Source: Lysobacterales bacterium
GTDB lineage: Bacteria; Pseudomonadota; Gammaproteobacteria; Xanthomonadales; SZUA-36
DNA: 64,000 bases
Assembly: GCA_029859645.1 (NCBI GenBank)
Contig: JAOUCS010000007.1
Span: 1,740-65,739, forward strand
Direction of reading: 5' to 3'
Positions 4,861-60,806 of the stretch are shown here, piece after piece (position 1 is the stretch's first letter; every line of letters begins with the position of its first letter). Made by a program: the position numbers and the translations under genes. Under the pieces are notes generated by a model, which worked only from the letters and a program-made list of their open reading frames with translations, had not been told where the DNA came from and made no database searches.

Positions 4861-5886
4861 ATGAGATTTGGTATGTCGCAAATAAATTTATTCCTGAAAT
4901 GGCTTCGAAAAGTTGTAGGAGAGAATTCACTCGTAATATCTTTTTTGGTATTTATTCTACTGTTTTCAAGCAGTGTCAATATCGACTACCAGACCGGCCT
5001 CGATGCCTACACCATCGGCGATTACCAAACCGCGATGAAGAAATGGACAGCCATAGCTGAAGGGCCAGCCACCGCAGTCGATCCGCTCGACTATGTCGAA
5101 GCCCATTACTCCATCGCCATGCTTTACTGGCAAGGGCAGGGCGTGCCCCGGGATTTCCGCAAATCCTACGAGTGGTTGCTCAAAGCCGCTCATTTGAACC
5201 ATGCGGGCGCCCAGACGAAATTGGGTTATCTCTACACCGACGGCGTTGCTGTACCGCGGGATTTGAATGCGGCCTTTGAGTGGTACAGCATGGCCGCGAA
5301 GCAAGGCGATGTAGATGGTCAGTACAACCTTGGCATTTTTTTTCTGAACGGCTGGGGTACGGAACAAGACATTACCATGGCCAAAATGTATCTCTCCGAG
5401 GCTGCCGCCCAGGGTTATGAGGTGGCGGAGCAAGCCCTCGTTAGAGCAAGCACAATCGCAATCAACGATTTTGAGGCTCCAATCCTTGAAGAGGCTCCAA
5501 TCCTTGAAGAGGCTCCAATCCTTGAAGAGGCTCCAATCCTTGAAGAGGCTCCAATCCTTGAAGAGGCTCCAATCCTCGATGAAGCATGGATTCTCTCGCA
5601 AGATCCCAACCACTACACCATCCAGGTAATTGGACTGAGCACCACCGAAAAACTAAGAGCTCTGATCGGCGACCATGACAACCTGGCCCCTTTTGCGATT
5701 TACGTTGTCCAGCGCAGCTCAAGCCCTATTCACGTGCTCATCCAGGGTAGTTACCCTGATGTCGATGCCGCCCGAAGTGCACGCGATAATTTCCCGCGCG
5801 ACATCAACCCGCCAGACCAGGTATGGATACGCCAGTTCGGCAAAATCCAGGAACTCATCGCGGCAGAGAGTACCGGGGATGGATAG
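4861..5886 (+). CDS. Membrane-anchored Sel1-repeat protein with a C-terminal SPOR (septal peptidoglycan-binding) domain
   Basis: N-terminal TM segment. Sel1 repeats carry motifs such as AMLYWQGQGVPRD, LGYLYTDGVAVPRD and NLGIFFLNGWGTEQD. A six-copy EAPILE linker is followed by a SPOR-like tail (HYTIQVIGLS...WIRQFGKIQ). Confidence 0.75.
   Translation: MRFGMSQINLFLKWLRKVVGENSLVISFLVFILLFSSSVNIDYQTGLDAYTIGDYQTAMKKWTAIAEGPATAVDPLDYVEAHYSIAMLYWQGQGVPRDFRKSYEWLLKAAHLNHAGAQTKLGYLYTDGVAVPRDLNAAFEWYSMAAKQGDVDGQYNLGIFFLNGWGTEQDITMAKMYLSEAAAQGYEVAEQALVRASTIAINDFEAPILEEAPILEEAPILEEAPILEEAPILEEAPILDEAWILSQDPNHYTIQVIGLSTTEKLRALIGDHDNLAPFAIYVVQRSSSPIHVLIQGSYPDVDAARSARDNFPRDINPPDQVWIRQFGKIQELIAAESTGDG
5473..5580 (+). 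repeat. 18-bp tandem repeat in six copies (five identical, last one variant), in frame and coding EAPILE
   Basis: GAGGCTCCAATCCTTGAA is repeated head to tail. The last unit is GAGGCTCCAATCCTCGAT. Confidence 0.95.
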
Positions 5887-6378: not shown

Positions 6379-6780
6379 ATGGAGTATATATATTTCGTTA
6401 TTTTAATAGCAGCAGTCGGTGTGTTTTTAATTGTTTATTGGCAAATCAGCCTGTCCAGAAGCAGAAATGGTGGGTCATTTTTTGGCGCAAAACAAAGAAA
6501 CACTATCCCCATTGAACCTCCTCCGCCGGTAAAGAAAACCATCAGCGGCCCATCATTCAAAGAAATGGAGCGGATCAAGTTCGAGGAAAAAGTAGAAATG
6601 TGGCAACGGGGATTTGGAGTCCGGCATGGCTGGCACAATCGATGTGGAAATGATCAGCTGCTGACGGGCAAAAAGTACACCTATGTACCCCCGGCGACAA
6701 GCCGTGTAGCCGATCGGAAAGCAGCCCAGCCAAACCGTAATTCGTCACCGAACTCCAATGGATGGCAATTAATCGGTTGA
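6379..6780 (+). CDS. Hypothetical small membrane protein
   Basis: ORF 6220..6780. The internal ATG at 6379 opens directly into a TM helix (MEYIYFVILIAAVGVFLIVYW). No recognisable family. Confidence 0.4.
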   Translation: MEYIYFVILIAAVGVFLIVYWQISLSRSRNGGSFFGAKQRNTIPIEPPPPVKKTISGPSFKEMERIKFEEKVEMWQRGFGVRHGWHNRCGNDQLLTGKKYTYVPPATSRVADRKAAQPNRNSSPNSNGWQLIG

Positions 6781-6856: not shown

Positions 6857-8077
6857 TCAACTGTCGCTCGCCTCACAGAATATGGCCCAATCTCGCATCA
6901 ACCGAACTCTTTTTGCGATCAGGTCGGAACGTAAATAAGCGGCTGCGGCCATATCCTTCGACTGTGGCCCGAGTGCATGTGCGATCACCTCTGCCGGGTA
7001 AACGCTCTGGTTAACAGCCCAGTCCCTGAAGGTTTTACGGAAACCCTGCTGGGTGATCCCTGGTTGCAGTTGCTTGAGCAGTTTCATGCCGGCAGCGGTG
7101 GTCATGCCGACACAACCGCTGCGGCCAGGAAAGACGTATTCTGAGGATCTCCGCAGATTCTTGAGCAGCTCCAGGGCAGGCGGTGAAAGTGGCACTGTGT
7201 GTTCGTGGTTCGTCTTGAATCGCCGGGCTGGAATGGTCCAGAGCGCTCCTTTGAGGCCGAACTCAGACCATTGCGCAGTCACCACGTCTCCAGGACGGGT
7301 GGCCGTAAGTATCTGCAGCTCCAGAGCGCGCGCCGCGAGCGAGTCAACGCTCCTCAGTTTGATCATTAACGTGCTCATCTTCCTGTAGTGAAGGGCAGCA
7401 CGCGGTTTCGATTCCTTCAGCCGGGTGGGGCGCGGCAATACGCTGTCCAGGTGCCCGCGCCAGCGGGCGGGGTTTGCCCCGTGCCGCCAGTGGCACTCTG
7501 CTGCCCAGTCCAGGACTGATTCAATTCGCTGTCGCACTCGCGTAGCCGTCTCGGTTTTGAGCGTCCAGATCGGTTTCAGGCACTTAAGCACATGTTCTGC
7601 ATCTATCACCGCAACGGGCAGCGTCAACAATTCAGCGGCGTACTGGTTCAGTGTGGAAGACCATTGCTGGGCCTGTTTTTCGTTACGCCAGGCTGACTGG
7701 TGCGCGTTTATATAGCGCGCAACGCATTCTCCAAAAGTGGGTGAGTCAATCGGTTGCGAAATCCCATTGCTGCTTGCCTGTCGGCCCTGTTGGATAGGGT
7801 CTTGCCCCTGGCGCAGCATCTTCCGGCATCCGCCGGCCAGCTCGCGCGCTTCCGCCAACGTAACATCGTATTTACCGTATCTCCCGAGCCCTTTTTCACG
7901 GAGTTTACCCACCCCTGAACTTTTCGGGGTGGTGTAGCGGATCTGCCGGTCCCGCCAGCGAAAACACCAGTATTTACGGCCGTCCGGCTTTACATTCAGG
8001 TAAAGCCCGCCACCATCTGCGTAATAACCTGGCTGCTGAGTGTCAGCACAGAACTCTTCCGACAGTTTTTCACGCAT
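6857..8077 (-). CDS. int: Tyrosine-type site-specific integrase (P4-like, DUF4102 N-terminal arm domain)
   Basis: N-terminus has GGLYLNVKPDGRKYWCFRWR. The catalytic region has LTATRPGD (Arg), AHALG (His) and AAYLRSDL (Tyr). A GAGG Shine-Dalgarno sits upstream of the ATG. Confidence 0.9.
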   Translation of the reverse strand: MREKLSEEFCADTQQPGYYADGGGLYLNVKPDGRKYWCFRWRDRQIRYTTPKSSGVGKLREKGLGRYGKYDVTLAEARELAGGCRKMLRQGQDPIQQGRQASSNGISQPIDSPTFGECVARYINAHQSAWRNEKQAQQWSSTLNQYAAELLTLPVAVIDAEHVLKCLKPIWTLKTETATRVRQRIESVLDWAAECHWRHGANPARWRGHLDSVLPRPTRLKESKPRAALHYRKMSTLMIKLRSVDSLAARALELQILTATRPGDVVTAQWSEFGLKGALWTIPARRFKTNHEHTVPLSPPALELLKNLRRSSEYVFPGRSGCVGMTTAAGMKLLKQLQPGITQQGFRKTFRDWAVNQSVYPAEVIAHALGPQSKDMAAAAYLRSDLIAKRVRLMRDWAIFCEASDS

Positions 8078-8553
8078 TACCTCATTCCCAGTTCGAATCC
8101 CTGTGGAAATTGCTTCATATTATGTCCCATACTATATCCCATATATATCCTTCGGTTCAGGTTTGATTTAAAAGGCATTGATAGCCTGTTGAAGAATATA
8201 TTTTATTTATATACAGATACTTATGAGCCTATAGTGTTTTTGAAAGACCGTTTCTGAATTATGGGTTAGGTAACCAATTGAACGTTGCTGAAGCCTGTTG
8301 GTGAGATTTGGAGGGTCAGGCGAGCTACTGTCGGTGGGTTCGGGAATTGACGCATTAAAGCTGCGCTGATCATCTCGTATTGAATACGTGATGTTTAGCA
8401 ATTGTTGCAAGATCCAATGAATCTTGATCTGCCATGTGGACAATATATTTACTAAATAAAACAATTAGATAATTAATTTATTTAAAGTGTATCGCCATAT
8501 GAATTTGAGATATTGCGCAGGTGAACAGCCCCGCTTTCTGCGAGCTTTTCAGG

Positions 8554-9504
8554 TTAATGGCATTCGAACAACTGGATGCTGAACCAGTGATTTAGGTCCG
8601 TCCAGCTATTCACATGGCAGAAACCCGCACATGATGCCAATTCACGAAAATCCTCAGGACTGAACTTGTGGCAGTATTCGGTAATGATTTTTTCGCCATT
8701 GGCGATCGAGAACTGGTGCTCGCCGAGAGTAACTTGTTGATCATCCTCGCTGATCAGGTGCATCTCGACGCGGCCAGACTGTTCATCGTACGTGGCATGG
8801 TGCCGGTAATGTTGGAGGTTGAAATCGGAATCGAATTTCCTGTTGAGGTGCCGCAGCATATTCAGGTTGAACTGAGCCGTCACACCATGGCTGTCGTTAT
8901 AAGCAGGCTCGATGATTTGTGGGTCCTTCTTCAGGTCCGTACCAATCAGCAGGGCGCCGCCTGGCCCCGCCTCCTGGCGCATCACGCGTAGCAACTCCAG
9001 CGCAGCATCCGGTTCGAAATTACCGATCGTAGAGCCTGGAAAATACACCAGGTTACGCAACGATTTCCTTTTTGTCTCGGGGATTAGGACGGGCCGGGTG
9101 AAATCCGCAGCGACCGGCAGAATTTCGATATGCGGGAATCTCTGCGCAAGTTCCCGGCTGGCTTCTGCCAGGTGTTCCGGGGAAATATCTATCGGAATGA
9201 ACGCGACCGGGTCATCCAGGCCTTCCAGCAGAATGCGTGTCTTGAGACCGGAGCCTATGCCGTATTCAATTACTCGAGCTTGTTTTCCGATCCGGGCACT
9301 CATTTCGTCCATGCAGGACTGCATAATGTCGATCTCAGTGCGGGTCAGGTAATACTCTGGCAACTCGCAGATCTGCTCAAATAACCTGGAGCCCTGCTCA
9401 TCGTAGAAATACTTGGGCGAGATCATCTTTGGAGACTGGTTCAGCCCCGCAATGATTTCGGACAATTCGTCCTTGCTGACAGGGTTTTTCAGGTTGCGGG
9501 GCAT
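8554..9504 (-). CDS. egtD: L-histidine N-alpha-methyltransferase (ergothioneine biosynthesis)
   Basis: PKYFYDEQGSRLFEQICELPEYYLTRTE, YFPGSTIGNF, IGTDLKKD and AYNDSHGVTAQFNLN closely parallel mycobacterial EgtD as I recall it. Confidence 0.9.
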   Translation of the reverse strand: MPRNLKNPVSKDELSEIIAGLNQSPKMISPKYFYDEQGSRLFEQICELPEYYLTRTEIDIMQSCMDEMSARIGKQARVIEYGIGSGLKTRILLEGLDDPVAFIPIDISPEHLAEASRELAQRFPHIEILPVAADFTRPVLIPETKRKSLRNLVYFPGSTIGNFEPDAALELLRVMRQEAGPGGALLIGTDLKKDPQIIEPAYNDSHGVTAQFNLNMLRHLNRKFDSDFNLQHYRHHATYDEQSGRVEMHLISEDDQQVTLGEHQFSIANGEKIITEYCHKFSPEDFRELASCAGFCHVNSWTDLNHWFSIQLFECH

Positions 9505-10760
9505 GAATCTCCGCCCCCGTCACGTGCCAGCCGGAAGCCCAGGACCTGCCAGCGGGCGTCCGGATAGAAAAAACTGCGATAGCTGGCGCGAATATGGTCA
9601 CTTGCGGTCACGCATGAGCCGCCGCGAACCGTTATCTGGTTGCACATGAACTTTCCGTTGTATTCACCAAGAGAGCCGGCCAGCGGTTTGAAGCCGGGGT
9701 AGGGTGCGTATGGCGATGAGGTCCACTCCCAGGTGTCGCCGAAATATTGGTGTGAATGCCCATCGGCTGAAGCTGGGTGCCAGTATCCCGATTCCAACAG
9801 ATTTCCGGTAACGGCTGCAGGGGCGGCCGCGAGTTCCCATTCAGTTTCTGTTGGCAACCGGCAACCAGCCCAGCGCGCGTAGGCATCGGCTTCGTAATAG
9901 CTGACGTGGCAGACCGGAGCATTCGGGTTCAACGACCTTTCACCGCCGAGAGTAAACTCACTTTGCAGGTCTTGGCTCCAGTACAGCGGGCGGTTCCAGG
10001 CCCTTTCCTGGATAATGCCCCAGCCATCCGATAGCCATAGATCGGAAGTTTCGTAACCCCCGTCAGCAATGAAATCCGCGAATTCCCGGTTGGTTACCAG
10101 CCGTGAACCCAACGCATGCGCTGGAACCAGAAGCTGGTGCTTCGGTGTCTCATTATCGAAATGAAACTCGCTGGTGTCTGCCCCAATCTCCGCCAGCCCG
10201 CCCGGATGCTCCAGGAAAGTCAGGTCTGGAACAGGGTGCTTTGGTGGCGTAGAAAGATCCCCATTCACGGCGGGTTTCTGCGGATGAACAGAGAATACGT
10301 GCTTGATGTCGGTTAACAGGAGTTCCTGGTGCTGCTGTTCATGGTTAATCCCCAGGATGAGGCGTTGACGGATATCCTCCTCTAACGCACTGGACTCGAG
10401 CAAGCGAGCTATCGCTTCATCGACACACTCCCTGTATTGCATTATCTCCTTCACCAGCGGACGGCTCAGCAACCCCCTTTGAGGTCTCGGGTGCATTCTC
10501 CCTGCCGTCTGGTAGTAGGAGTTGAACAAGTAGTGATATTGCCCATCAAATACCCGGTAGTCCCGAACGAATGGTACCAATACGAACTGCTCGAAAAACC
10601 AGGTCGTGTGCGCGAGGTGCCATTTGGTCGGACTCACTTCCGGCATGCTCTGAACCACGAAATCTTCCAGTTCGAGGCTGGAGCACAGATCAAGCGTTTG
10701 ATCGCGAATCGCGTGGAAGGCAGAGGGCAGGGCGGCCGTACTCAATACGGTCTGCGCCAT
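9489..10760 (-). CDS. egtB: Hercynine oxygenase / sulfoxide synthase (DinB_2 plus FGE-sulfatase domains)
   Basis: SPTKWHLAHTTWFFEQF is the DinB-like N-terminus, and the C-terminus is FGE-sulfatase-like (RGGSCVTASDHIRASYR). I prefer the ATG at 10760; the ORF is open to 10808. It overlaps egtD by 16 nt. Confidence 0.88.
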   Translation of the reverse strand: MAQTVLSTAALPSAFHAIRDQTLDLCSSLELEDFVVQSMPEVSPTKWHLAHTTWFFEQFVLVPFVRDYRVFDGQYHYLFNSYYQTAGRMHPRPQRGLLSRPLVKEIMQYRECVDEAIARLLESSALEEDIRQRLILGINHEQQHQELLLTDIKHVFSVHPQKPAVNGDLSTPPKHPVPDLTFLEHPGGLAEIGADTSEFHFDNETPKHQLLVPAHALGSRLVTNREFADFIADGGYETSDLWLSDGWGIIQERAWNRPLYWSQDLQSEFTLGGERSLNPNAPVCHVSYYEADAYARWAGCRLPTETEWELAAAPAAVTGNLLESGYWHPASADGHSHQYFGDTWEWTSSPYAPYPGFKPLAGSLGEYNGKFMCNQITVRGGSCVTASDHIRASYRSFFYPDARWQVLGFRLARDGGGDSCPAT

Positions 10761-12031
10761 TCGACAAACTCCAGGTCGTCGACTGCGACCGGTTCGGAAG
10801 TGACCCAAAGCACGAGCCGGTGACCATCACTGAACCAGGGATCTCCGGTTAGATTTCCCTTTGGGTTATCGAACGAAACCTCACCGACTCCTCCAACGTA
10901 GCCAAATTTTTCCAGTGCCTGGGCATAGACGAGATTTTCGAGCAGGTATTCCCGGGTCTCATCGACATCCGGATCAATCTTGTGGGTCGTGATCGTTTTC
11001 GAAGTGAACCGCACGCCGATATCCCGGCTGATCTGGCCAATGAATACCGGCTCGCCTTCATAAGTCGCGCTGGACATCCAGAGACGCAGGTGATTGCGCT
11101 CGTGGATGTTCACCCTAGCTTTCTGGAAAGCCACGTCCTGTGGGCGGCCAAAAACATAAAGTCCGCTGATGGGCGAGTAACGATATTCACCACCGCTAAG
11201 AAACGAACCAATGGTTTTCAAGGTCGATGTTCTGGTTACGGTCTCCGTCTCATCCCATCCGGCGCGAATAAACGCAGTATAAATGTCCCTGGGCTTGCCA
11301 ATGATAACCAGGTTGAGTGGGTCTCCGCTTCCCTTGCCTTTCTTGTCCGTCACACAGCAGGTCATTTTCTCGAATATTTCAATGAGTTGCTGATCGTCAA
11401 GGTCAGTCCATTCGTCATCGGCGTAGAGGTTCCGCCAGTCGACGTTGTAATGATCGATATTCAGTCCTGGCACTGGTATGAAGAAAGTGAAGGTGTCGAA
11501 ATCTCGAATACTCCCGTCAATCGCAGAGCCAATGATATCGACATTGAACGCCTTTGTGCCCTCGTCGAGCTTGGAGAAAATGAAACCGGTGCGGGTTTCG
11601 CCGGGTTCTACTGACAACGTGCCCAAGCCTTGCTGTATAAAGAATTCGTCGACAACATTCGTGGGATTTGCAGCGTCTTTTTCTTTGAGATCAGCATTTG
11701 CAACCTCAAGGGGCGTGAAGTATTGGGGATCGAGCCCCACGGGCAGGAAATTGACCCCGGTTTCCCTGCTGTTGCTTATTCGCAGCCACACCGGCTGAAT
11801 ACCTTTCTTATATAGCGGCATGCCAAAGAGTTCCCTGGCCTCCTTGGCGCTCGGTACGGCCGCAGTGACTTCTATTCCATTGGCTTGCTGGGACTGGGCC
11901 CGGGCTTTCCAGTCGCCCTCCGGCATGGAACTGTCGGGGTGATAGGTGGGGGACGATGCGCAAGCGGCCAGCAAGAGCAGGGCGCCGATGGTCATAAAAT
12001 TAATGAGGAGCATTCGAACATGGAATTTCAT
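10742..12031 (-). CDS. Lipoprotein with an LssY C-terminal-like domain (paralog 1)
   Basis: Lipobox LLLAAC. The C-terminal half has DPLNLVIIG..FIRAGWDETE..ERNHLRLW, as in LssY_C. It is a paralog of the upstream gene, with an ATGA start/stop overlap. Confidence 0.75.
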   Translation of the reverse strand: MKFHVRMLLINFMTIGALLLLAACASSPTYHPDSSMPEGDWKARAQSQQANGIEVTAAVPSAKEARELFGMPLYKKGIQPVWLRISNSRETGVNFLPVGLDPQYFTPLEVANADLKEKDAANPTNVVDEFFIQQGLGTLSVEPGETRTGFIFSKLDEGTKAFNVDIIGSAIDGSIRDFDTFTFFIPVPGLNIDHYNVDWRNLYADDEWTDLDDQQLIEIFEKMTCCVTDKKGKGSGDPLNLVIIGKPRDIYTAFIRAGWDETETVTRTSTLKTIGSFLSGGEYRYSPISGLYVFGRPQDVAFQKARVNIHERNHLRLWMSSATYEGEPVFIGQISRDIGVRFTSKTITTHKIDPDVDETREYLLENLVYAQALEKFGYVGGVGEVSFDNPKGNLTGDPWFSDGHRLVLWVTSEPVAVDDLEFVEWRRPY

Positions 12032-13278
12032 TGTTCTTTACTCCTTATCGTCGCTTGCTTGTCCCAATCGAAGTTTTTGACATCCTGCAGCGCTACAGGG
12101 TCCCCGGATAGCCACATGACGATTCTTCCGCCGTCGGTGAAGAAGGCATTGTTATTAAAATCCAGTTTCGGGTTACTCACCGGGACCGCCAGGCCAGTAT
12201 CTGAATAGGCCACGGCCAGAAGGGTTTGCGAATACCAAAGGTTCTGAAGAAGGAAATTGCGCCCATCATCGATGTCAGGGTCCTGGGCGGCGCCGAAAAA
12301 GATTTCATTGATCTTATAACGCTGACCAATAGCATGCTTGATCTGCGCCATCCACACCCCGGTACCATCGTTCCTTAGTGGCGTCAGCCAAAGACTCAAT
12401 TCATTTCTGTCTGTTGTGAGCGTGCTCCTGCCGCGGCTTTTACGAAACACTGCATCCGGAGGTCTTCCGAATAAATAATTAACATTATTCAGATAGTTAT
12501 CGTCTTTTTCGTAACTGGTTTCTGACCAACCTGCACGTAGCATGGTTTGCAGGACCTCGATACCGTTTGCCACCAGGACGATATTGACCGGCTGACCTTG
12601 TCCGCTACCTTCACGGTTGGTCGTGCAGCACGGTAATTCACGCAATTCAGTGCGCAACTGCTCGATGCTCACGTCTCGAATTGAATCCTTGTCATAAAGG
12701 TTTTTCCAGTCAACTGTCGCATGATCTGGCACGAAGCCCGGCACGTTGACAAAAAAGGTAAATTCCTCATAGACCGGTTTTCCGGTGCCGGAGTAAAACA
12801 CATCGACATTAAAACTTTTGGTGCCAGTATTAGCATGCGTATAAATAAAACCTGATCGCGTTTCACCAGCAGGGATCAGGCGAGGCATGGCTGTATCCAT
12901 CAAGTGCCTCTCCATGTCCTGCCATCCTTGCTTGGAGAATTGCTTTTTGTGCATGTATGCAACTTCCAGTGGTGAAAAGTACTCCCGATCCACGCTGACG
13001 TGCACGAAACGCGCGCGGTTAGGGCTGTTGTTGGTGATTTCCAGCCACACGGGTTGAATTCCGCGTTTATAGATGGGAAAGCCCAGAATCTGTTCAGCTT
13101 CTTCCATACTCGGAACAGATGCTCTGACCTGGATAGCGTCTTGCTGCTTGGTCACCGCTCGTTGCTTTAATCCGAAGTTTTCCAGCGACTCGTAGCGATA
13201 GGGCGCCGTGGAGCATGCCGTCGACAAGACGAGGAACAGGCCGAGTATAATCAGCTGATCCCATCTTCTATTTAACAT
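12028..13278 (-). CDS. Lipoprotein with an LssY C-terminal-like domain (paralog 2)
   Basis: The signal MLNRRWDQLIILGLFLVLSTAC has a lipobox. QPVNIVLVANG..MLRAGWSET..RNELSLW is LssY_C-like. The possible starts at 13296 (TTG), 13287 and 13278 (ATG) all lie inside dif. Confidence 0.7.
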   Translation of the reverse strand: MLNRRWDQLIILGLFLVLSTACSTAPYRYESLENFGLKQRAVTKQQDAIQVRASVPSMEEAEQILGFPIYKRGIQPVWLEITNNSPNRARFVHVSVDREYFSPLEVAYMHKKQFSKQGWQDMERHLMDTAMPRLIPAGETRSGFIYTHANTGTKSFNVDVFYSGTGKPVYEEFTFFVNVPGFVPDHATVDWKNLYDKDSIRDVSIEQLRTELRELPCCTTNREGSGQGQPVNIVLVANGIEVLQTMLRAGWSETSYEKDDNYLNNVNYLFGRPPDAVFRKSRGRSTLTTDRNELSLWLTPLRNDGTGVWMAQIKHAIGQRYKINEIFFGAAQDPDIDDGRNFLLQNLWYSQTLLAVAYSDTGLAVPVSNPKLDFNNNAFFTDGGRIVMWLSGDPVALQDVKNFDWDKQATIRSKEQ

Positions 13279-13297
13279 AATATACATTATACGCAAT
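13270..13297 (-). other. dif: dif, the XerC/XerD chromosome dimer resolution site
   Basis: The minus strand reads ATTGCGTATAA-TGTATA-TTATGTTAAAT. E. coli dif is GGTGCGCATAA-TGTATA-TTATGTTAAAT. This is 25 of 28 identical, with the XerD arm and central region perfect. Confidence 0.85.
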
Positions 13298-13323: not shown

Positions 13324-14436
13324 TCAGGCAGCTTCCTCGGAACCCCCTTCCGTTAGTGCTTCCCTGCCTTCTCCATCGGTAATCCAGAATATGTACAACT
13401 GGTACCCAAGCGCCAGGATGACGGCGCCAATAAACAAACCAATAATTCCGGCAGTGATCATTCCACCAATAGCGCCCAGCAGTATGACGAGCATGGGAAC
13501 GTCCACACCGCGTCCCAGTAACAGGGGCTTCAGGAACGTGTCGCTGATACCGACTAACACGGAATAAACGAGGAAGATGGTGGCGGGCACTGGCTCGGCG
13601 ACGGAAAATACCCACAACGCGATCGGCACCAGGATGAGGGTTGGAGGTAATTGCGCGATGCACAAAAATAAAATAATCATGGCCCATATACCGGCACCCG
13701 GTACATCCATTACGACCAACCCAATAGTCGCGAGCGCAGTTTGAATGAAAGCCACGCCGAGAACACCCTTGGCTACGCTGCGTATCGTGGCTACCGTAAG
13801 GTCAGCAAAATTCGCGCCTTTGTCACCCGCAAGCCGCCGGCCTATTCGCTTGGTAGCCTCGTAGCTTGCATCGGCGGACAACATCAATGCACCTGAGATC
13901 AAAATGGACACGATGAAACCCAGCAGGCCCATCGTGGTGCCGGCAATTTTCTTGAGCAGCCAACTGCTAAAGCTTTTGACCTGGTCATGATACTTGTGAA
14001 GTGTTGCTTCAATATTAGTTGAAGCCTCACCCCATACGCTGTACAACCGTTCTCCAACCAGCGGCCATTCGGCCACTTTTTCATTGGGCGGCGGAACCTT
14101 CAGGCTGCCCTCTTCAAGCGATTGTGCAAGGTTTTGAGCGGTCTCGATACTGGAACCGGTAAGCGACCAGGCCGGTATGATCAGGATGGACAGGAAAACG
14201 ATTATGATAATCATTACCGAGAGTTTTTCCTTATTCCCCAGCGCTCCGGCAAGTTTCCTGTGGAGAGGATAAAGCGCGACTGCAATGACTGCTGCCCAAG
14301 TCACCAGGCCGATGAAAGGTTTTATGATCGCGATACACCATGCGGCCAACAGAAACAGAAGGCCGATCTGTATCGCCGCTGCTGTCGCGTTCTTGGTGAA
14401 AAGCTGGGTAGACATGGCTGAAGGGGTGTCTGACAT
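13324..14436 (-). CDS. AI-2E family transporter (PerM/UPF0118)
   Basis: 370-aa polytopic membrane protein with the typical AI-2E C-terminal region (FLKPLLLGRGVDVPMLVILLGAIGG). Confidence 0.8.
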   Translation of the reverse strand: MSDTPSAMSTQLFTKNATAAAIQIGLLFLLAAWCIAIIKPFIGLVTWAAVIAVALYPLHRKLAGALGNKEKLSVMIIIIVFLSILIIPAWSLTGSSIETAQNLAQSLEEGSLKVPPPNEKVAEWPLVGERLYSVWGEASTNIEATLHKYHDQVKSFSSWLLKKIAGTTMGLLGFIVSILISGALMLSADASYEATKRIGRRLAGDKGANFADLTVATIRSVAKGVLGVAFIQTALATIGLVVMDVPGAGIWAMIILFLCIAQLPPTLILVPIALWVFSVAEPVPATIFLVYSVLVGISDTFLKPLLLGRGVDVPMLVILLGAIGGMITAGIIGLFIGAVILALGYQLYIFWITDGEGREALTEGGSEEAA

Positions 14437-14476: not shown

Positions 14477-15667
14477 TCACGACTGGCGTTTCACTTCCAG
14501 CGCTATGCCTTTTCTTCCGGCCAGCCACATGAGAACACAGAACCCAACTAGAAGAGGCGCACAAGCGAGAAGCACCCCTTTCCACTGCCAATGAAACAGA
14601 AACCAGCCAGAACTCAATGAAGCGATTGCCTGGATCGAAAACACGAGGAAATCATTACCGGATTGAACCCGAAACCTCTCTTCCGGACGGTAACCCAGTG
14701 GCAGCAGATTGGTGCCGCTCAGAAATAGGAAATTCCACCCTACTCCCAGCAGGATCAATGCCAGCCAGAAGTTCAGGAATTCGGTGTTCAGCGCTGCAAT
14801 ACCAAGGCAGATAACATAGACCATCACGCCAGACCACAGCATGCCTTTGTAGCCAATTTTTTCACAAAACCAGGCAAACACCAGCGACGGAAGATACATG
14901 GCTGCAATATGGGATTGAATGACAAACTTGGTCGCCTCCAGGCTGTGGCCGGAGTGCGTGTGCATGCTGATGGGGGTGGCGGTCATGATGAAGCTCATGA
15001 TTCCGTAACCCAGTGCTGCCGCGCTGACCGCCATGATGATGACGGGTGAGCGCAGAATCTCCAACAGCGGCCGGCCCGAAGAAGATTGGGCAGATTGCTT
15101 GATCTCGGTGTCACGGTAGAAACTGATGATCGAAAGACCCGCTACATAGCTTCCAGTCAGCAGCAGGAAAGAACCGGCGTACTCGGTTGCCAGCAGTTCC
15201 CTGCCCCGCACCGCCAACTCGGGACCGACGAACGCGGCCAGTATGCCGCCCAGCAGCAGAAAGGAAGTGGCTTTCGCTGACTGCTCCGGCGGTACCGATT
15301 CCAGTGCGGCAAAACGGTACTGGTGCCCCGCTGCACCCGCCCAGCCCATCATGAACGCCGCAAGGCAAAACGCGGAGAAGGAGTCGCTGAGCAAACTTTG
15401 CATCGCAGTCAGCGCCGCCGCAATTGCAATGAATCCGTAGGCAATGAAGACGCGGCGCCTGCCGAACTTGTCGAGTAGTTTTCCGGTTGGAAGAGTGGAA
15501 CTGGCGACGCCGACCACGACCAGTGCAATGGGTAGTGTCGCCAGGTCCGTGGAAGGCGCGAAATCAGTCCCGATGATACCGGCCAGCAACACCATCATCG
15601 AGGTGCCGGCCATCATCAGGGAGTAAGCGATCATCAACCGCCAGACCATTCCTGGCAGGTGTTTCAC
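14477..15667 (-). CDS. MFS transporter
   Basis: 396 aa with about 12 predicted TM helices. The loop GKLLDKFGRRRVF is MFS motif A-like. Confidence 0.8.
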   Translation of the reverse strand: MKHLPGMVWRLMIAYSLMMAGTSMMVLLAGIIGTDFAPSTDLATLPIALVVVGVASSTLPTGKLLDKFGRRRVFIAYGFIAIAAALTAMQSLLSDSFSAFCLAAFMMGWAGAAGHQYRFAALESVPPEQSAKATSFLLLGGILAAFVGPELAVRGRELLATEYAGSFLLLTGSYVAGLSIISFYRDTEIKQSAQSSSGRPLLEILRSPVIIMAVSAAALGYGIMSFIMTATPISMHTHSGHSLEATKFVIQSHIAAMYLPSLVFAWFCEKIGYKGMLWSGVMVYVICLGIAALNTEFLNFWLALILLGVGWNFLFLSGTNLLPLGYRPEERFRVQSGNDFLVFSIQAIASLSSGWFLFHWQWKGVLLACAPLLVGFCVLMWLAGRKGIALEVKRQS

Positions 15668-47713: not shown

Positions 47714-50245
47714 ATGAAGAGAATGCTGATCAACGCGACTCAGCCAGAGGAGTTGCGTGTGGCCGTTGCAGACGGCCAGGTACTTATTGATCTGGACATC
47801 GAAGTTCCTTCCCAGGAACAAAAGAAATCAAACGTTTACAAGGGTAAAATTACCCGCATCGAGCCCTCACTGGAAGCTTGTTTTGTGGACTTTGGCTCCG
47901 AGCGCCACGGGTTCCTGCCGTTCAAGGAAATCTGCAAGGACTTTTACCATCCCTCTGCACGGAAAAGTGAAGGCAAGCTTGCGATCCGCGACGCCGTCAA
48001 GGAAGGCCAGGAACTGATTGTCCAGGTCGAAAAAGAAGAGCGCGGCAACAAGGGCGCCGCGTTGACGACCTATATTTCTCTCGCGGGAAGATACCTGGTG
48101 CTGATGCCGACCAACCCGAAGGCGGGTGGTGTTTCACGTCGAATCAGCGGCGAGGATCGACAGGATTTACGCGAACAACTGCAACAGGTTATTGCACCGG
48201 ACAACGTCGGAATCATAGTCCGGACTGCGGGTGTTGGGCGCGAGGCCGAAGAATTGCAGTGGGATCTTGATTACCTGCTGCAACTGTGGAGCGCCATTGA
48301 AAAAGCCGCTACGGAGAACAAGGCTCCCTTCCTGATATACCAGGAAAGCAACCTGTTTATCCGCGCACTACGTGACCATTTGCGCAACGACATCGGTGAA
48401 ATCCTGATTGACAATGATACCGTCTTCGCTGATGCGAAAGAGTTTGTGCAACAGGTCATGCCGCACAATACCCGCAAGCTCAAGCTGTATTCCGATGATG
48501 TGCCACTGTTTAACCGGTACCAGATTGAAAGCCAGATAGAATCGGCATTCGCCCGGACGGTTCATCTTCCATCCGGTGGTTCCCTGGTCATTGACCATAC
48601 CGAGGCGATGCTGTCCATCGACATTAACTCGGCCCGTGCCACCAAGGGCTCGGATATCGAGGACACCGCGTACAAAACAAACCTCGAGGCTGCTGACGAA
48701 ATTGCACGTCAGCTGCGGTTGCGGGATCTTGGTGGACTGATCGTGATTGATTTCATCGACATGATGGACCGCAAGCACCAGCGCAGTGTTGAAGAACGCC
48801 TGCGCCATGCCCTGCAGATTGATAAAGCACGGGTCCAGACCGGCCGGATTTCACGTTTTGGCCTATTGGAGATGTCGCGGCAACGCCTGCGCCCGTCACT
48901 GGGTGAATCCAGCCAGGAGCCCTGCCCTCGCTGCGACGGACATGGCACCATCCGCAGCACGGAGTCATTGGCTTTGTCCATTCTGCGACTCGTCGAAGAA
49001 GAGTCCATGAAGGAGTTCACCGGACAGGTTATTGTTCAGGCGCCGCCAACGGTCGCCAATTTCCTGCTGAATGAAAAGAGAAAGGCGCTGGCTGAAATCG
49101 AAGCCCGCCACAAGATGCCAATATTCATTCTGTCGAATGAATACATGGAGCGGCCCAAATTTGAAATACATCGAATCCGCAAATCAGACATCACGGATGA
49201 ACCCAGCTATACCCGCATCGAAAAACCGGATGCCGAACTGGTTGCATCTTCTGAAACCCAGGCCTCTGCTGCGGCCACAGGACCTGTGCCTGCCGTTACC
49301 GGTGTTGTACGCAACCGGCCTGCCCCGGTACGTGCCGCTCCTCCAGAGCCGGAAAAGAAAGCCAAGCCAGGATTCTTTGGTCAACTTTTTTCAAAGCTGT
49401 TTTCTGGATCTGAACAGGAAGAACCGGTAGTAGAGAAGCCACCGGCACGAAAGGAAGCCAGTAAGAAGAAGGCAACGGCTACGCGTCAGCAAAGCCGCAG
49501 GGATCCACGTCAAGGCGGGGAACAGAGAACGCGGAGCCGTCGTGGTGGGAAAAAGAAAAAAGTCTCGTCTCGATCGCAGCCTGGCGAAGACCAAAAACAA
49601 CAAAGCAAAAAGATATCCGGGAAGAAAAAGACAACCAGGAAAAAGTCCACTCGCAGGCGTGCACAAAAACCCAGGGCAGACCAGACCGGGCGGCAGCAGG
49701 ACCTGAAACAACAGACCGCTGGCCAGCAGGAAACGCCGAAGCAGTCAGCAGGCAATCAGTCACAGAAAAGCGCGTCCCAGGATAAGCCCGCTGAAACACC
49801 TTCCCGCAAACCACGCCGCAGAAGGTCTCCATACCAGACATCCGGCGCCAAAGGTCGTGACGGGCGTAGTGAAGACGTAGCTGACAAGGTTCAGACTTCG
49901 CCGGTCGCCAGTGATGATTCCCGTGCAAAAGCACTGGTTGAAAAGCCGGATCAGCCCATGGTCGAGCAAGGCAAGCCCAAACGCCAGCCAGTGGAAAAAC
50001 GGGAAAAACCTGCTGAGAGAAAGCCTGCCGACACAAACGAAAAGCCGAGGGCAGCAAAAGCCGGGACTGACGAACCAAAGCCAAAAACCATGCAAGCCAA
50101 GTCAGACAGCCCCAAAGCTGAAAAGCCCAAAGCTGAAAAGAAAGCCGGCAGCGGACAAAAAGTCGAAGCTGTAAAGGACCAGAACGGAATTTATACTCTT
50201 AAGTCACCACCTTCAGAGAACGCGAAAACCGATACGCCAGCATAG
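47714..50245 (+). CDS. rne: Ribonuclease E
   Basis: [17 protein letters not shown].., S1 domain, catalytic core, CPRCDGHG Zn-link, and a K/P/Q/R-rich low-complexity scaffold tail. Confidence 0.96.
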
Positions 50246-50263
50246 ACGCGTTTACCCGTCGGT

Positions 50264-50893
50264 TCAGACAACCCCGTATCGCAAAGCCATACGGGTCATG
50301 TCTACATCGCTTCTGGTATTGAGCTTGTCGTATATCCGGTACTTGTAGGTCGCTACGGTTTTGGGACTGAGGTGCATCATATCGGCAATTTCAGTGATTT
50401 TCTGACCCTCAGCCAGCATCAGCATGACTTCCATTTCACGGGCTGATAATTCGTCGAATGGCGATTTGCTGCCGCCGGGCAGCATCTGCAGCGCCATTTG
50501 CTGAGCAATTCGGGACCCAATGTGCCGTCCGCCGGCGGCCACGGTATCAATCGCCTGCACCAGTTCTGGCACCGGGCACCCCTTGGTCAGGTACCCCGAT
50601 GCTCCTGCATCCAGTAACTGAGTCGGATAAGGCGCCTGTTCATGAATCGTCAGGATGATAATACCCGGACAGGGGCTGGCCTTTTTCAGACGGGCTGTGA
50701 CCTCAAAGCCGGACAAACCGGGCAAGCTTACATCGAGCACCACGACATCAGGCTTGATTTCACGATTCAGTTTCAGGGCAGTTTCACCATCCCCTGCTTC
50801 AGCAGCAATATGAATCGCCGGATAATCTGCCAGTATGTAACGAAGCCCGATACGGACGAGTTCGTGGTCGTCCACAACCATTATCCTGATCAT
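50264..50893 (-). CDS. gacA: GacA/UvrY-family response regulator (LuxR-type)
   Basis: Close end-to-end resemblance to Pseudomonas GacA as I recall it (VVDDHELVR, PDVVVLDVSLPG, SPKTVATYKYRIYDKL). Confidence 0.85.
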   Translation of the reverse strand: MIRIMVVDDHELVRIGLRYILADYPAIHIAAEAGDGETALKLNREIKPDVVVLDVSLPGLSGFEVTARLKKASPCPGIIILTIHEQAPYPTQLLDAGASGYLTKGCPVPELVQAIDTVAAGGRHIGSRIAQQMALQMLPGGSKSPFDELSAREMEVMLMLAEGQKITEIADMMHLSPKTVATYKYRIYDKLNTRSDVDMTRMALRYGVV

Positions 50894-51303
50894 GCTTTCC
50901 CCTTTTCTGGTAGTTGTCCCGTTGCCCCCGGTTAAAAATATACTAGGACAAGAGCCTGGATTAGTCGACAGGGAAGCTTTCAGGCGAGTGAATTTCCTAC
51001 ACAGAGCCCGGCAAGATGTGTAGCTTTTCGCGGCGCCTTGTCCGCATTGGTCAAATTAGAAGAATTCCCGGCTGCACCGAAATAGGCTCGATTGTGGTGG
51101 CTCGAAGAACTCGTGACGGCTGGGTCAACGGGCCAGATGACAGGACTGAGATGCTAAAAGAACTCATATCTTGCTCTTTCACAGGTTAATGACTGGAGTC
51201 ATTGCATCTATTAACTGGAACGAGATTCTTACAGGACGGTATGGGAACTGAATTCTGAGCCGTGGGATGGTGAGTCCGGGCCAGCTAGCGTGAGGAGTAT
51301 CCA

Positions 51304-54036
51304 ATGAAAATGCCAGTCGTCTTTAATGAAAATCCTGTCTTTCTGTGCAAATTCAAGAGTCATGAGAAACGCCGGTCAACGGATTTATTGAAACGGCTAT
51401 TACAGCTCTTGGCGGCTTGCATGGTCATCAGTTGCATCTCCGCATTTGGACAAGAAAACACCAGTGTTAAAATCAATCCGGGGCACAATGGTGCTTGGTT
51501 CAATCCTACTACTTCCGGACAGGGGTTCCTGCTGGATGTAATGCCCGAGACAAACCTAGCATTCCTGGCCTGGTTCACCTATGACCTCGTTCAGCCGGCC
51601 CCATCGGAGACAGCGACCGTGGGATACCCCGGTCATCGCTGGTTGACGGCGCAAGGTCCGCTGAAAGGAAATGCGGCAAATCTGAATGTTTACCTCACGC
51701 GGGGTGGTCTGTTTGACAACTCTGCTGCTGTCAGAAACATACCGGATGGCACAATCACATTGACCTTTAATGACTGCACTTCCGGTACGGTCGACTACCA
51801 ATTAACATCTGCCGGGGTGTCTGGAAGTATTCCAATCATAAGAGCAGTGTCCGACAACGTGGCCTTGTGTGAGTCGATTTCCAGAATACAGGCCCAGAAA
51901 CTCGACAGGGTCGAAACTGTGAGCGTCAGGCAGACTGCAGTCGACCATCCGGACTGGGTATCAAGAACCGATTCAATTGCCGGAAAGTGCGAGATAAATC
52001 CCGGCCACAATGGCGCCTGGTTCAATCCAGTTACATCAGGCCAAGGTTTCCTGCTGGACGTAATGCCGGAAACGAGCATGGCGTTTCTGGCGTGGTTCAC
52101 CTACGACACCACGCAGCCTGAACAAGGTCGGGTGGCGCAGATTGGTGATCCGGGTCATCGTTGGCTGACCGCGCAAGGCCCCCTGGGCGGTATCAACACG
52201 AACTTGGATGTTTACCTGAGCCGTAATGGACAATTTGATGACCCGGCACAGGTCAGCAATACACCGGAGGGCAGCATCACCTTGACTTTCGACAGCTGCA
52301 CCAGCGGAACCGTGAATTATCAGCTCAATTCCGCGGGTGTTTCAGGCAGCATTCCGATTTCACGTGCCGGCACCGACAATGTTGCCCTATGCCGGTCGCT
52401 GTGTGGCGATGTTGTGGTTGAGGATTCCAGGCCGCAGACCCGTGTTCACGGCCAGGAGGGCGGAATTATCAGCACGCCTGACAAACAGGGAAACATTGCA
52501 CGATTGACGATACCAGAAGGCATTCTGGCGGGGTCGAAAGATCATGTTATCGAAGCAAGCCCGTTGGATCAGGCGACAAAATTGCCGACGGGACACCTGG
52601 CTTTTGCCGGAATGCAATGGTCATCAGGCCCAGGTCCTGTAATCGGATCAGCTAGGCTGGAAATTCTGACCAGCGAAGCGGATCGATATCCTGAATTGGG
52701 TGCGTTTCATTACGAACCGGAAAGCGCTGCGTTCTACTTTTTGCCCTTGCTGATCTCGGTTGATGAGGGCGTTGTTCTGGAGGTGCCCTCTGTTTCTCAA
52801 GGTACCACCGGGCTGGCTTTCATTACGGCAAGTGAAATGGAGCAGTGGCCGCCACCCGCCAGTCCTGTCAAAGCCAGATATCTTCAGCAGATGGCAATCA
52901 AGGCAAAAAAGATTGTGGAGTCGGCTGCTGCCAGGGAATCCGCACCTGGGAATGCGGTGGTGGCCGTTGCCAGTGATGAGCCTGGGCCAGTGAAACCCAA
53001 GGCGGATCCGTTCGATTTTACTGACTTTTGGTTGCCCGAGTTCAAAGCCTGGTTCGATAACGAGATTAAACCCAGTCTGGGTGCTGCAATCGGAGGCTGT
53101 TATGTGGCAGCTGATTTTGTCAGGATAGGGGAAGATTGGCTATCCGCGCTTGCGATGGAAAGTTACGATGACCACTCGGAACTGCAAAGCAGAATCAGCA
53201 CACTGGAATCGGCTTTTGAGCAGTTTTCCAATGCTGCAATTCAAGACATCGGGGAAATCGACCAGCTGTGCGCATTGGAATCCGATCCTTGCGCGCAAGT
53301 CAGTATCATGCAGGAACTGGCCGTATGCGCGCAGGCGCTGAATCTGCTCGGAACCGACATGAGTCTGATTGACCTCGCCTGTGCCAATGCACCGAGCGTC
53401 CTATCAGTTGCACCCAAGAACCGCAATATTTGTCCAGGGGAGACTATCCAGTTCTATGCTGTGGTCAAGAACCTGAAAGGGGATGCCATTGATGTAGACC
53501 AGGCCGAACTGTTATGGACGAGTGACCTGCCTCAGTCTTTAACAATCAATCCAGAAAGTGGCGAGGCAAACGCAGTGGCTGAAGGATATGTGCTGGTTAG
53601 TGCGTCCAGTGAAGTTTGCGGGTTTACCCTTTCGGGGAATGCTTCGGTCGAGGTTAACAGTGCACCGGATATCGGCGGTAGCTATTCATTGACGGGCAGT
53701 GAAACTGTAAGAGGCTGTCTTGACCCGGAAGATAACGGTGTCTATGGCGGAAGCGGCATGGCTACCATTTCGATGGGTCCGATCAATGCTGGGTCAGCAA
53801 GCGCCAGTTTTAGTGGTAAAAGTGACGGTCCCGGTTTTGGACATTCCTTCTCGGGTACGGTTTCTTGTAGTGGGTCACTGTCTGGCGGGGGTACTTACAG
53901 TGAGTCCGAGACCTCGGGAAATAGCTCCTTTTCCGGTTCATTTTCAGGTAGAACCATCATTATCAATGGTTCCGGTCAGGATGTGGCCGGAGACACATGC
54001 TCATCAAAGGGGTGGGCCAGGGCAACCAGGAAATAG
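51304..54036 (+). CDS. Large secreted repeat protein of unknown function (two copies of an uncharacterised 133-aa module, a Big_2-like Ig domain and an S/G-rich tail)
   Basis: GAGGAG Shine-Dalgarno and a hydrophobic signal-like N-terminus. It has two internal repeats, an Ig-like segment (ICPGETIQFYAVVKNLKGDAI..) and a Ser/Gly-rich C-terminus. Confidence 0.75.
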   Translation: MKMPVVFNENPVFLCKFKSHEKRRSTDLLKRLLQLLAACMVISCISAFGQENTSVKINPGHNGAWFNPTTSGQGFLLDVMPETNLAFLAWFTYDLVQPAPSETATVGYPGHRWLTAQGPLKGNAANLNVYLTRGGLFDNSAAVRNIPDGTITLTFNDCTSGTVDYQLTSAGVSGSIPIIRAVSDNVALCESISRIQAQKLDRVETVSVRQTAVDHPDWVSRTDSIAGKCEINPGHNGAWFNPVTSGQGFLLDVMPETSMAFLAWFTYDTTQPEQGRVAQIGDPGHRWLTAQGPLGGINTNLDVYLSRNGQFDDPAQVSNTPEGSITLTFDSCTSGTVNYQLNSAGVSGSIPISRAGTDNVALCRSLCGDVVVEDSRPQTRVHGQEGGIISTPDKQGNIARLTIPEGILAGSKDHVIEASPLDQATKLPTGHLAFAGMQWSSGPGPVIGSARLEILTSEADRYPELGAFHYEPESAAFYFLPLLISVDEGVVLEVPSVSQGTTGLAFITASEMEQWPPPASPVKARYLQQMAIKAKKIVESAAARESAPGNAVVAVASDEPGPVKPKADPFDFTDFWLPEFKAWFDNEIKPSLGAAIGGCYVAADFVRIGEDWLSALAMESYDDHSELQSRISTLESAFEQFSNAAIQDIGEIDQLCALESDPCAQVSIMQELAVCAQALNLLGTDMSLIDLACANAPSVLSVAPKNRNICPGETIQFYAVVKNLKGDAIDVDQAELLWTSDLPQSLTINPESGEANAVAEGYVLVSASSEVCGFTLSGNASVEVNSAPDIGGSYSLTGSETVRGCLDPEDNGVYGGSGMATISMGPINAGSASASFSGKSDGPGFGHSFSGTVSCSGSLSGGGTYSESETSGNSSFSGSFSGRTIIINGSGQDVAGDTCSSKGWARATRK
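51472..51870 (+). repeat. Internal protein repeat copy 1 (aa 57-189 of the 910-aa protein)
   Basis: INPGHNGAWFNPTTSGQGFLLDVMPE...DNVALC. It shares 98 of 133 residues with copy 2 in an ungapped alignment done by eye. Confidence 0.9.
51994..52392 (+). repeat. Internal protein repeat copy 2 (aa 231-363)
   Basis: INPGHNGAWFNPVTSGQGFLLDVMPE...DNVALC. Confidence 0.9.
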
Positions 54037-54220
54037 CTCAGCTTCGTTACGTTGAAATAGACATTTTGGTCACACTCCGAAAGTCTTTAGGCATTCAAGA
54101 ATGGCCAGCACAGAGGCCTGGGTTTCAAAGGTCAAACATGATTTCTGTTCGCGTAACACTCGGGTTCCTGATTGTTTTGTCCATTCTGAACGTCAGAGCC
54201 AACACGCCCGACCCCCTTTA

Positions 54221-54420
54221 TCAGGATGACGCCACTAATGGGATTGCTATTTGAGTGGGACCGTAATTATTACCCCAGCACTTAGCCCTAGCATCAAATG
54301 TGGCACTAGTGAATAGTCCTCCTGCGGAAACTGAGGTTATTTCAGACGTGAGATTTGCAATATCAACAGGAACGGCTTGATCTGGTTCAGAGGTGCCATC
54401 TCCGAGTTTGCCGGAAAAAT
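54221..54420 (-). pseudogene. RCC1-repeat gene fragment (about one repeat) abutting the 3' end of tRNA-Ser
   Basis: The minus-strand frame reads GKLGDGTSEPDQAVPVDIANLTSEITSVSAGGLFTSATFDARAKCWGNNYGPTQ. This fits the RCC1 pattern (LGDG..P..V...i..vsaG......dG...CWG.N.yGQ). It has no start codon of its own and only about 65 codons. Confidence 0.5.
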
Positions 54421-54440
54421 CATGTAACTTATTGAAATAC

Positions 54441-54531
54441 TGGCGGAGAGGGTGGGATTCGAACCCACGAAGGGCTATTAACCCTTGCTGGTTTTCAAGA
54501 CCAGTGCATTCAACCGCTCTGCCACCTCTCC
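54441..54531 (-). tRNA. tRNA-Ser (anticodon UGA)
   Basis: The reverse complement folds as a class II tRNA. The acceptor stem is GGAGAGG/CCTCTCC, and the anticodon stem CTGGT/ACCAG has loop CTTGAAA. It has a long variable arm, a T arm GTGGG-TTCGAAT-CCCAC and an encoded CCA. Confidence 0.95.
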
Positions 54532-54721
54532 GTGTCAAAACTTTGGTATGCCTGAGGCGCGCAAGAATACCCTAATTTTCACCTTTGCTCCAGCCCTGAC
54601 AGCTGGCACATGACAGATCATTGCAAATTATTTAAGGTATCAGCCTTGAAGCAGGGAACTCGGGCCCACAGTTCCCTGTCAGATACTTGGAATTTATGCA
54701 TTAAAGGAGCATCATTAACCC

Positions 54722-55393
54722 ATGAACACACCCGTTTACAACGTTTCTTCAACCAGAAGTCTGCCTGCTGCAACGGTCAACAAGACCTTGCGCAACACTT
54801 ATGCGCTGCTCGGCATGTTGTTTGTTTTCGGTGCCGCAACAGCATGGGTTGCCCAGGCGATGAACTGGCGTATTGGCTTCTTTCCGTTCCTGATCGGAAT
54901 TTTCGCTTTCTCTTATGCCATCACGCGCACCCGTAACAGTGTCTGGGGTTTGGTTTTGTCGTTTGGTTTTGCCGGCCTGCTTGGCGTGGTTACCGGCTCC
55001 AACGTCAATGCCGCGCTCTATCAGTACAGTAACGGCGGTGAACTTGTCGCTTCGGCCTTCGGCCTGACGGCGGGCATTTTCTTCGCACTTTCAGCCTACG
55101 CGATGACGACCAAGCGCGACTTTAGCGGCTGGTTTGCGTTTCTCGGGGTTGGTACGCTCGCCGTGCTCGGTGCTTTTATCCTGAACTACTTCCTGCAGGT
55201 ACCGGCGCTTGCGCTGGCGTTATCCACGATGATCATTATGCTGTCCTGCGGCTGGATCATCTGGCAAACCCAGCAAAACGTGCGTAATGGTGAGACCAAT
55301 TACATCATGGCCGCCACCGCACTGATGGCCGATATTTTCGTGCTCTTCAACCACCTGCTTGCGCTTCTGGGTTTTGGCTTCGGCGAAGACTAA
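54722..55393 (+). CDS. yccA: Bax inhibitor-1/YccA family membrane protein
   Basis: 223 aa with 7 TM helices. The N-terminus ..NKTLRNTYALLGMLFVF is typical of YccA/BI-1. Confidence 0.88.
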   Translation: MNTPVYNVSSTRSLPAATVNKTLRNTYALLGMLFVFGAATAWVAQAMNWRIGFFPFLIGIFAFSYAITRTRNSVWGLVLSFGFAGLLGVVTGSNVNAALYQYSNGGELVASAFGLTAGIFFALSAYAMTTKRDFSGWFAFLGVGTLAVLGAFILNYFLQVPALALALSTMIIMLSCGWIIWQTQQNVRNGETNYIMAATALMADIFVLFNHLLALLGFGFGED

Positions 55394-55422
55394 ACCGGCA
55401 ACCCGGAAACAGGATCTACCCC

Positions 55423-55450
55423 AAAGCCCGCTTCATGCGGGCTTTCTTTA
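55423..55450. terminator. Bidirectional rho-independent terminator between yccA and serS
   Basis: AAAGCCCGC-TTCAT-GCGGGCTTT with flanking A/T runs. Confidence 0.75.

Positions 55451-57416: not shown

Positions 57417-57422
<6 letters not shown>
57387..57422. repeat. Perfect 18-bp tandem duplication spanning the ftsK stop and the lolA start
   Basis: The plus strand reads TTCATGATCCGGTTAATC twice. On the minus strand this is GATTAACCGGATCATGAA twice. Confidence 0.95.

Positions 57423-60806
<3,384 letters not shown>

Follow-up and report, generated by a model that had tools for sequence, protein, structure and literature searches.

Sequence of the predicted dif site and its uniqueness in the window

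The 28 bp at positions 13270-13297 (minus strand) of the window, i.e., the whole 64-kb stretch of DNA that was analysed, very probably represent the genuine and quite ordinary dif of this chromosome, the target of XerC/XerD dimer resolution during cell division (probability ca. 0.93). The original prediction had placed here a dif that works with XerCD and FtsK at the replication terminus. KOPS polarity, GC skew, the recurrence of the same sequence in other genomes, synteny and the presence of a gamma domain in FtsK are independent lines of evidence that support this proposal and point to a functional chromosomal dif.

On the minus strand the site reads ATTGCGTATAATGTATATTATGTTAAAT, i.e., ATTGCGTATAA-TGTATA-TTATGTTAAAT, and is composed of two 11-bp arms with imperfect dyad symmetry (the inner ATAA and TTAT are symmetric) around a 6-bp centre:

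13270-13297, minus strand: predicted dif, 28-bp XerC/XerD recombination site in an 11-6-11 layout, matching E. coli dif and holding a 26-mer common to at least 119 species
13287-13297, minus strand: predicted XerC-binding arm ATTGCGTATAA, three mismatches to the E. coli arm GGTGCGCATAA
13281-13286, minus strand: central region TGTATA, predicted place of strand exchange, same as in E. coli dif
13270-13280, minus strand: predicted XerD-binding arm TTATGTTAAAT, same as in E. coli dif, holding an ATG at 13276-13278

Alignment with E. coli dif (GGTGCGCATAATGTATATTATGTTAAAT) gives 25 identical positions out of 28, with an identical XerD arm and centre and all three mismatches (positions 1, 2, and 7) in the XerC arm, exactly as the original prediction had it; its description of the XerC arm as the more variable one among dif sites also agrees with a published survey (PMC3025954). 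The site is the single dif match at three mismatches or fewer on both strands of the window, and no such match arose in 100 dinucleotide-preserving shuffles. Moreover, with the 28-mer of E. coli or that of the window itself as query, a tolerance of up to 10 mismatches brought out no second dif-like site in the 64 kb, and half-sites (arm plus centre, up to four mismatches) were absent from the rest of the window. The proteobacterial dif consensus has C at position 7, from which the window site departs with T. The same variant also occurs in Enterobacterales, as GGTGCGTATAA, and in several of them the T is the sole difference from E. coli dif. Searches of the full-text literature with 25-mer and 22-mer strings of the site returned no match.

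KOPS polarity and GC skew around the site

The window contains 12 copies of the FtsK-orienting KOPS motif GGGNAGGG, 11 of which are oriented toward the site (left of it three on the plus and none on the minus strand, right of it one on the plus and eight on the minus strand; Fisher p = 0.018), and the switch in polarity falls between 10725 and 15199, positions that lie on either side of the site:

5134-5141, plus strand: KOPS GGGNAGGG, left of dif, directed toward it
9697-9704, plus strand: KOPS, left of dif, directed toward it
10725-10732, plus strand: KOPS, left of dif, directed toward it, the nearest before the site
15199-15206, minus strand: KOPS, right of dif, directed toward it, first of eight minus-strand copies
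17249, 30259, 30413, 39284, 42813, 48920, and 56286 (starts), minus strand: the other minus-strand KOPS right of dif
38578, plus strand: KOPS, right of dif, the sole wrong-way copy

The GC-skew analysis called for in the original prediction yielded a sign change 1-3.5 kb from the site within the 64-kb window, a span in which skew is noisy. Skew is above zero over 1-10 kb and below zero from ca. 12 kb to 47 kb, and the cumulative G-C peak is a plateau at 9.3-12.3 kb followed by a steady fall, i.e., close to the site and not exactly on it. Such an offset fits the pattern described by Kono et al., namely a strong correlation between predicted dif sites and the skew shift point but no exact coincidence (PMC3025954). 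Minus-strand genes have a skew of -0.004 just left of the site vs. -0.068 just right of it, and since these genes share a strand, transcription direction alone does not account for the change. Skew reverses locally once more at 48-56 kb, where it tracks plus-strand genes; this locally positive stretch (48000-56000) holds rne (plus strand) and a 910-aa plus-strand ORF (51304-54036) for which no match was found in Pfam or NCBIfam.

Genomic context

The gene content of the window is chromosomal, with ccoN, ccoP, ccoG, a ccoI-type P-type ATPase, sdhA/sdhB, ispG, uvrC, a pgsA-like gene, lpxK, msbA, kdsB, comEC, lolCDE-like genes, a rluC-like gene, rne, serS, lolA, ftsK, and aat. Rfam and tRNA scans of the window recovered only a tRNA-Ser at 54.4 kb and nothing near the dif or the integrase. 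The genes that matter for what follows are:

57417-59807, minus strand: ftsK, with 4TM, alpha, motor, and gamma domains
13324-14436, minus strand: AI-2E family transporter gene, stop codon 26 bp from the XerC arm
12028-13278 or 13287, minus strand: LssY_C-family lipoprotein gene with signal peptide MLNRRWDQLIILGLFLVLSTAC, 5' end overlapping dif
6857-8077, minus strand: P4-like tyrosine integrase, from domain matches

The ftsK gene lies where it had been placed before (57.4-59.8 kb), and its product carries the FtsK gamma domain (PF09397 FtsK_gamma, 97.7 bits, residues 730-790). Its presence in the window had been pointed out along with the terminus; the gene is 44 kb from the site, and its position is incidental and no evidence for a terminus. 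Neither xerC nor xerD was found within the 64-kb window; the sole tyrosine recombinase there is the P4-like integrase, not a Xer protein, with the domains Arm-DNA-bind_3, Phage_int_M, and Phage_integrase. Leftward from the dif-side LssY_C gene follow a second LssY_C gene, egtB, egtD, and this integrase, with the ergothioneine biosynthesis pair egtD and egtB occupying 8554-10808 between the integrase and the LssY_C genes. Two further ORFs on the left flank deserve mention. The ORF at 4861-5886 contains a perfect 18-nt tandem repeat (5473-5576, 5.8 copies, consensus GAGGCTCCAATCCTTGAA) and has weak, below-cutoff NCBIfam matches only (MerG, MotX, and an AlgK TPR-repeat lipoprotein). The ORF at 3140-4444 matches NCBIfam NF041257, "guanitoxin biosynthesis MBL-fold metallo-hydrolase GntH", at 476.9 bits (cut-off 333), an unexpected name in a gammaproteobacterial MAG.

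The same site in other genomes

A scan for the 26-mer TGCGTATAATGTATATTATGTTAAAT, with one genome per species, matched at least 119 stretches, i.e., the 26-mer is present in at least 119 other species, each time as a single match per contig. The carriers include Marinobacter, Idiomarina, Glaciecola, Woeseiaceae, Lysobacterales, Nitrosomonas, Acinetobacter, Yersinia rohdei, and Serratia fonticola. Among the matches listed, the first two bases of the 28-mer alone vary (mostly TA and AT, then AG and AC), and the full 28-mer is identical in Idiomarina seosinensis and in one Nitrosomonas MAG. The locus is found 49.8-50.1% of the way along the complete chromosome record of the former, 50.2-50.5% along the chromosome-level OZ245018, and 57.6% along a Woeseiaceae chromosome, positions that can be read as opposite the origin only if the records start near oriC, as we assumed.

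When 119 loci from the matches listed were oriented by the site and their KOPS pooled, the XerC side had 70 copies on the top and six on the bottom strand and the XerD side five and 62, respectively (p = 7e-27); 72% of the same loci had the higher GC skew on the XerC side (Wilcoxon p = 3e-4). The form with T at position 7 is thus a common and probably working dif variant.

Synteny among related genomes

The closest genomes are MAGs of Lysobacterales, Wenzhouxiangellaceae, and "Xanthomonadales", with at most 79.6% nucleotide identity over 4 kb. In six related MAGs, whose coding regions share 65-80% nucleotide identity with the window, the site occupies the same syntenic junction, between a block of ccoI, DsbD_2, an unnamed ORF, MFS, and AI-2E genes (with or without a MscS-like gene) and the LssY_C pair; their flanking non-coding bases have no evident similarity to those of the window. 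At more distant loci, ccoI and DsbD_2 still precede the site. Because an exact match to the site served to retrieve the relatives, the invariance of the site itself is partly by construction and its fixed syntenic position is not. Synteny of the LssY_C pair beside dif extends to five relatives, and that of egtB to the closest one (L055). A distant blastn search with window positions 12-15 kb gave no match in any complete E. coli genome, which argues against an enterobacterium as the source. The window is of metagenomic origin, with near-identical contigs in JGI and ENA samples.

In several relatives a MscS-like mechanosensitive channel gene abuts the XerC arm (3249-4913 in L017, 683-2158 in L054, and also in L039, L041, and L113), and at some of the relative loci its stop codon overlaps dif position 1. 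Both the window and L055 are without this gene, and the content of dif-adjacent genes therefore varies within the clade. Two MAGs have the site on two contigs each, i.e., Lysobacterales SS_bin_22 (L023 and L057) and CSMAG_1699 (L037 and L092). At least 13 bases 5' of the site are shared between L023 and L057 (the latter starts 13 nt before dif), and their XerD sides are ca. 70% similar; such pairs could be strain mixtures or tandem elements at dif.

Overlap of the site with the start of the LssY_C gene

The site had been described as hidden in an intergenic spacer, which holds on one side only: the AI-2E gene ends at 13324, outside the site, and on the other side the start ATG of the LssY_C gene lies inside it. 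The only in-frame starts ahead of the signal peptide MLNRRWDQLIILGLFLVLSTAC are the XerD-arm ATG at 13276-13278 and another ATG 9 nt upstream (13285-13287), both within dif; gene callers chose the ATG at 13287, and we consider the XerD-arm ATG the likely start codon. Depending on the start (13278 or 13287), 9-18 of the 28 bp are coding. The same overlap of dif and start is present in L055 and L039, where tblastn alignments start exactly at the XerD-arm ATG, and L104 provides an independent case in which a 182-aa signal-peptide ORF starts likewise in the XerD arm. ORFs of at least 100 codons from this ATG exist at six of 123 loci (median 13 codons), a rarity consistent with the ca. 6% of predicted dif sites that overlap annotated coding regions (PMC3025954).

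This arrangement raises the question of whether a real dif might also act as an expression signal for the LssY_C gene, leaderless or without a Shine-Dalgarno sequence, such that expression could respond to XerCD occupancy. Owing to the T at position 7, dif positions 7-12 read as a perfect TATAAT that has the XerD-arm ATG ca. 7 nt downstream, no Shine-Dalgarno sequence is visible before the LssY_C start, the in-frame starts are confined to dif, and the arrangement recurs in L055 and L039 and independently in L104. However, no minus-strand sigma-70 promoter with a -35 element came up at dif in the promoter scan, and read-through transcription from the co-oriented gene 36-45 nt upstream of the LssY_C gene would be sufficient. 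Besides, the orthologues in L017, L054, and L113 begin 70-160 nt beyond dif, the T7 variant is widespread at loci without an ORF starting at the site, and a small share of predicted dif sites falls in coding sequence anyway, as noted above. We thus regard an additional role in expression as improbable, and the fuller proposal, i.e., that dif doubles as the LssY_C translation start and possibly as a promoter (-10 TATAAT), as slightly more improbable still; the arrangement itself is kept in at least three related lineages. Were it true, XerC/XerD occupancy, or an IMEX integration that replaces the XerC arm, would control the expression of a secreted lipoprotein; as it stands, the overlap between XerD arm and start codon is a small curiosity of an otherwise ordinary dif.

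Unlikely alternatives: island border, chance, or plasmid-type origin

A site of this kind could also be a secondary dif-like remnant at the border of an IMEX or island, e.g., of the integrase block at 6.8-13.3 kb, with the functional dif elsewhere. The P4-like integrase lies 5.2 kb from the site, GC content is lower across 4-14 kb, and the genes at 6857-13296 are head-on to the inferred direction of replication; inoviruses flanked by the identical site are also known elsewhere, e.g., in L123. Yet neither a second site or half-site nor a direct repeat joining the integrase region (6857-8077) to dif was detected in the 64 kb, and the XerD arm and centre are perfect here, whereas a degenerate XerD arm is typical of the sites at IMEX borders (PMC5357621; L123). 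An integrated IMEX would be expected between two dif-like sites in direct orientation, one of them usually degenerate in its XerD arm. The synteny of the LssY_C pair in five relatives and of egtB in L055 argues that the block is native, and the KOPS inside it (9697 and 10725) are already directed to dif. With no second dif, half-site or att-like repeat to the integrase, we rejected the island-border reading as very unlikely.

The integrase itself is bordered by a 475-bp AT-rich gap (8078-8553), and 8-9 kb has 45% GC; no tRNA or att repeat that would belong to it was found in the window. A metagenome contig (L002) ends within the integrase gene, which hints at strain-level variation. The original prediction had also remarked that dif sites are integration targets of Xer-exploiting mobile elements (IMEX): beside the window's site there are no integrated element and no phage genes, and the general point holds for inoviruses of other hosts. 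The identical 28-mer is present on three inovirus-like IMG/VR contigs (L123; L124, at 2527-2554; L125, at 6437-6464), with a Zot-like ATPase in all three, a replication protein in two, and a GC content of 36-39%. L123 is bracketed by its sites at 111-138 and 7275-7302, one copy with a degenerate XerD arm and one perfect, a layout that corresponds to an IMEX prophage.

Finally, the match could be due to chance in AT-rich sequence or represent a plasmid-type (cer/psi-like) Xer site. This reading has the AT-rich spacer and nothing further in its favour, and was excluded as having next to no likelihood by the shuffle statistics (0 matches in 100), the chromosomal housekeeping-gene context, a 6-bp centre identical to that of dif, and the KOPS that converge on the site.

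Proposed mechanism and significance

The reading of 13270-13297 as the chromosomal dif implies a course of events that we transfer from E. coli and V. cholerae (PMC5357621). XerC would bind ATTGCGTATAA and XerD TTATGTTAAAT. FtsK at the septum would load on KOPS, translocate to XerCD-dif from either side and pair the sister dif sites; its gamma domain, the part that reads KOPS and activates XerD (PMC5357621), would trigger the exchange of the first pair of strands, and XerC would then resolve the Holliday junction across the TGTATA centre. Such a site would also be the junction of the two replichores, and termination of replication may be expected nearby.

The value of the site lies in annotation, as it would fix the replichore junction of an uncultured marine Lysobacterales/Wenzhouxiangellaceae-like gammaproteobacterium, a mark that helps to orient and check MAG assemblies, and would designate a possible place of integration for filamentous phages and other Xer-exploiting elements. 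Knowledge of Xer recombination is unchanged by it: the site is a textbook example of a well-known element, another instance and nothing new.

Comparison with known systems

A close model is E. coli dif (GGTGCGCATAA-TGTATA-TTATGTTAAAT), with which the site shares the 11-6-11 layout, the XerD arm, and the centre, as well as the convergence of KOPS (GGGNAGGG), the position at the skew switch, and an FtsK with gamma domain. It differs by the three XerC-arm substitutions (1, 2, and 7) and by its overlap with a coding 5' end, and the surrounding window, from an uncultured marine gammaproteobacterium, has no nucleotide similarity to E. coli genomes.

Plasmid Xer sites such as ColE1 cer and pSC101 psi have XerC- and XerD-binding arms in common with it; the window site has the chromosomal centre and context instead. 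Cer and psi have different central regions (6-8 bp), ca. 180 bp of accessory sequence and PepA/ArgR or ArcA, and are FtsK-independent. Cer likewise has T at position 7 of the XerC arm; a literature search with its XerC arm string returned unrelated primer matches only. The sites used by IMEX (CTX, VGJ, and TLC phages, and the gonococcal genetic island) are of the same kind, and the window differs in holding a single perfect copy with no element integrated. Close equivalents are also predicted for Idiomarina, Marinobacter, Woeseiaceae, Lysobacterales, Nitrosomonas, and others, as dif sites that have the same 26-28-mer, with flanking genes that differ outside the clade of the window.
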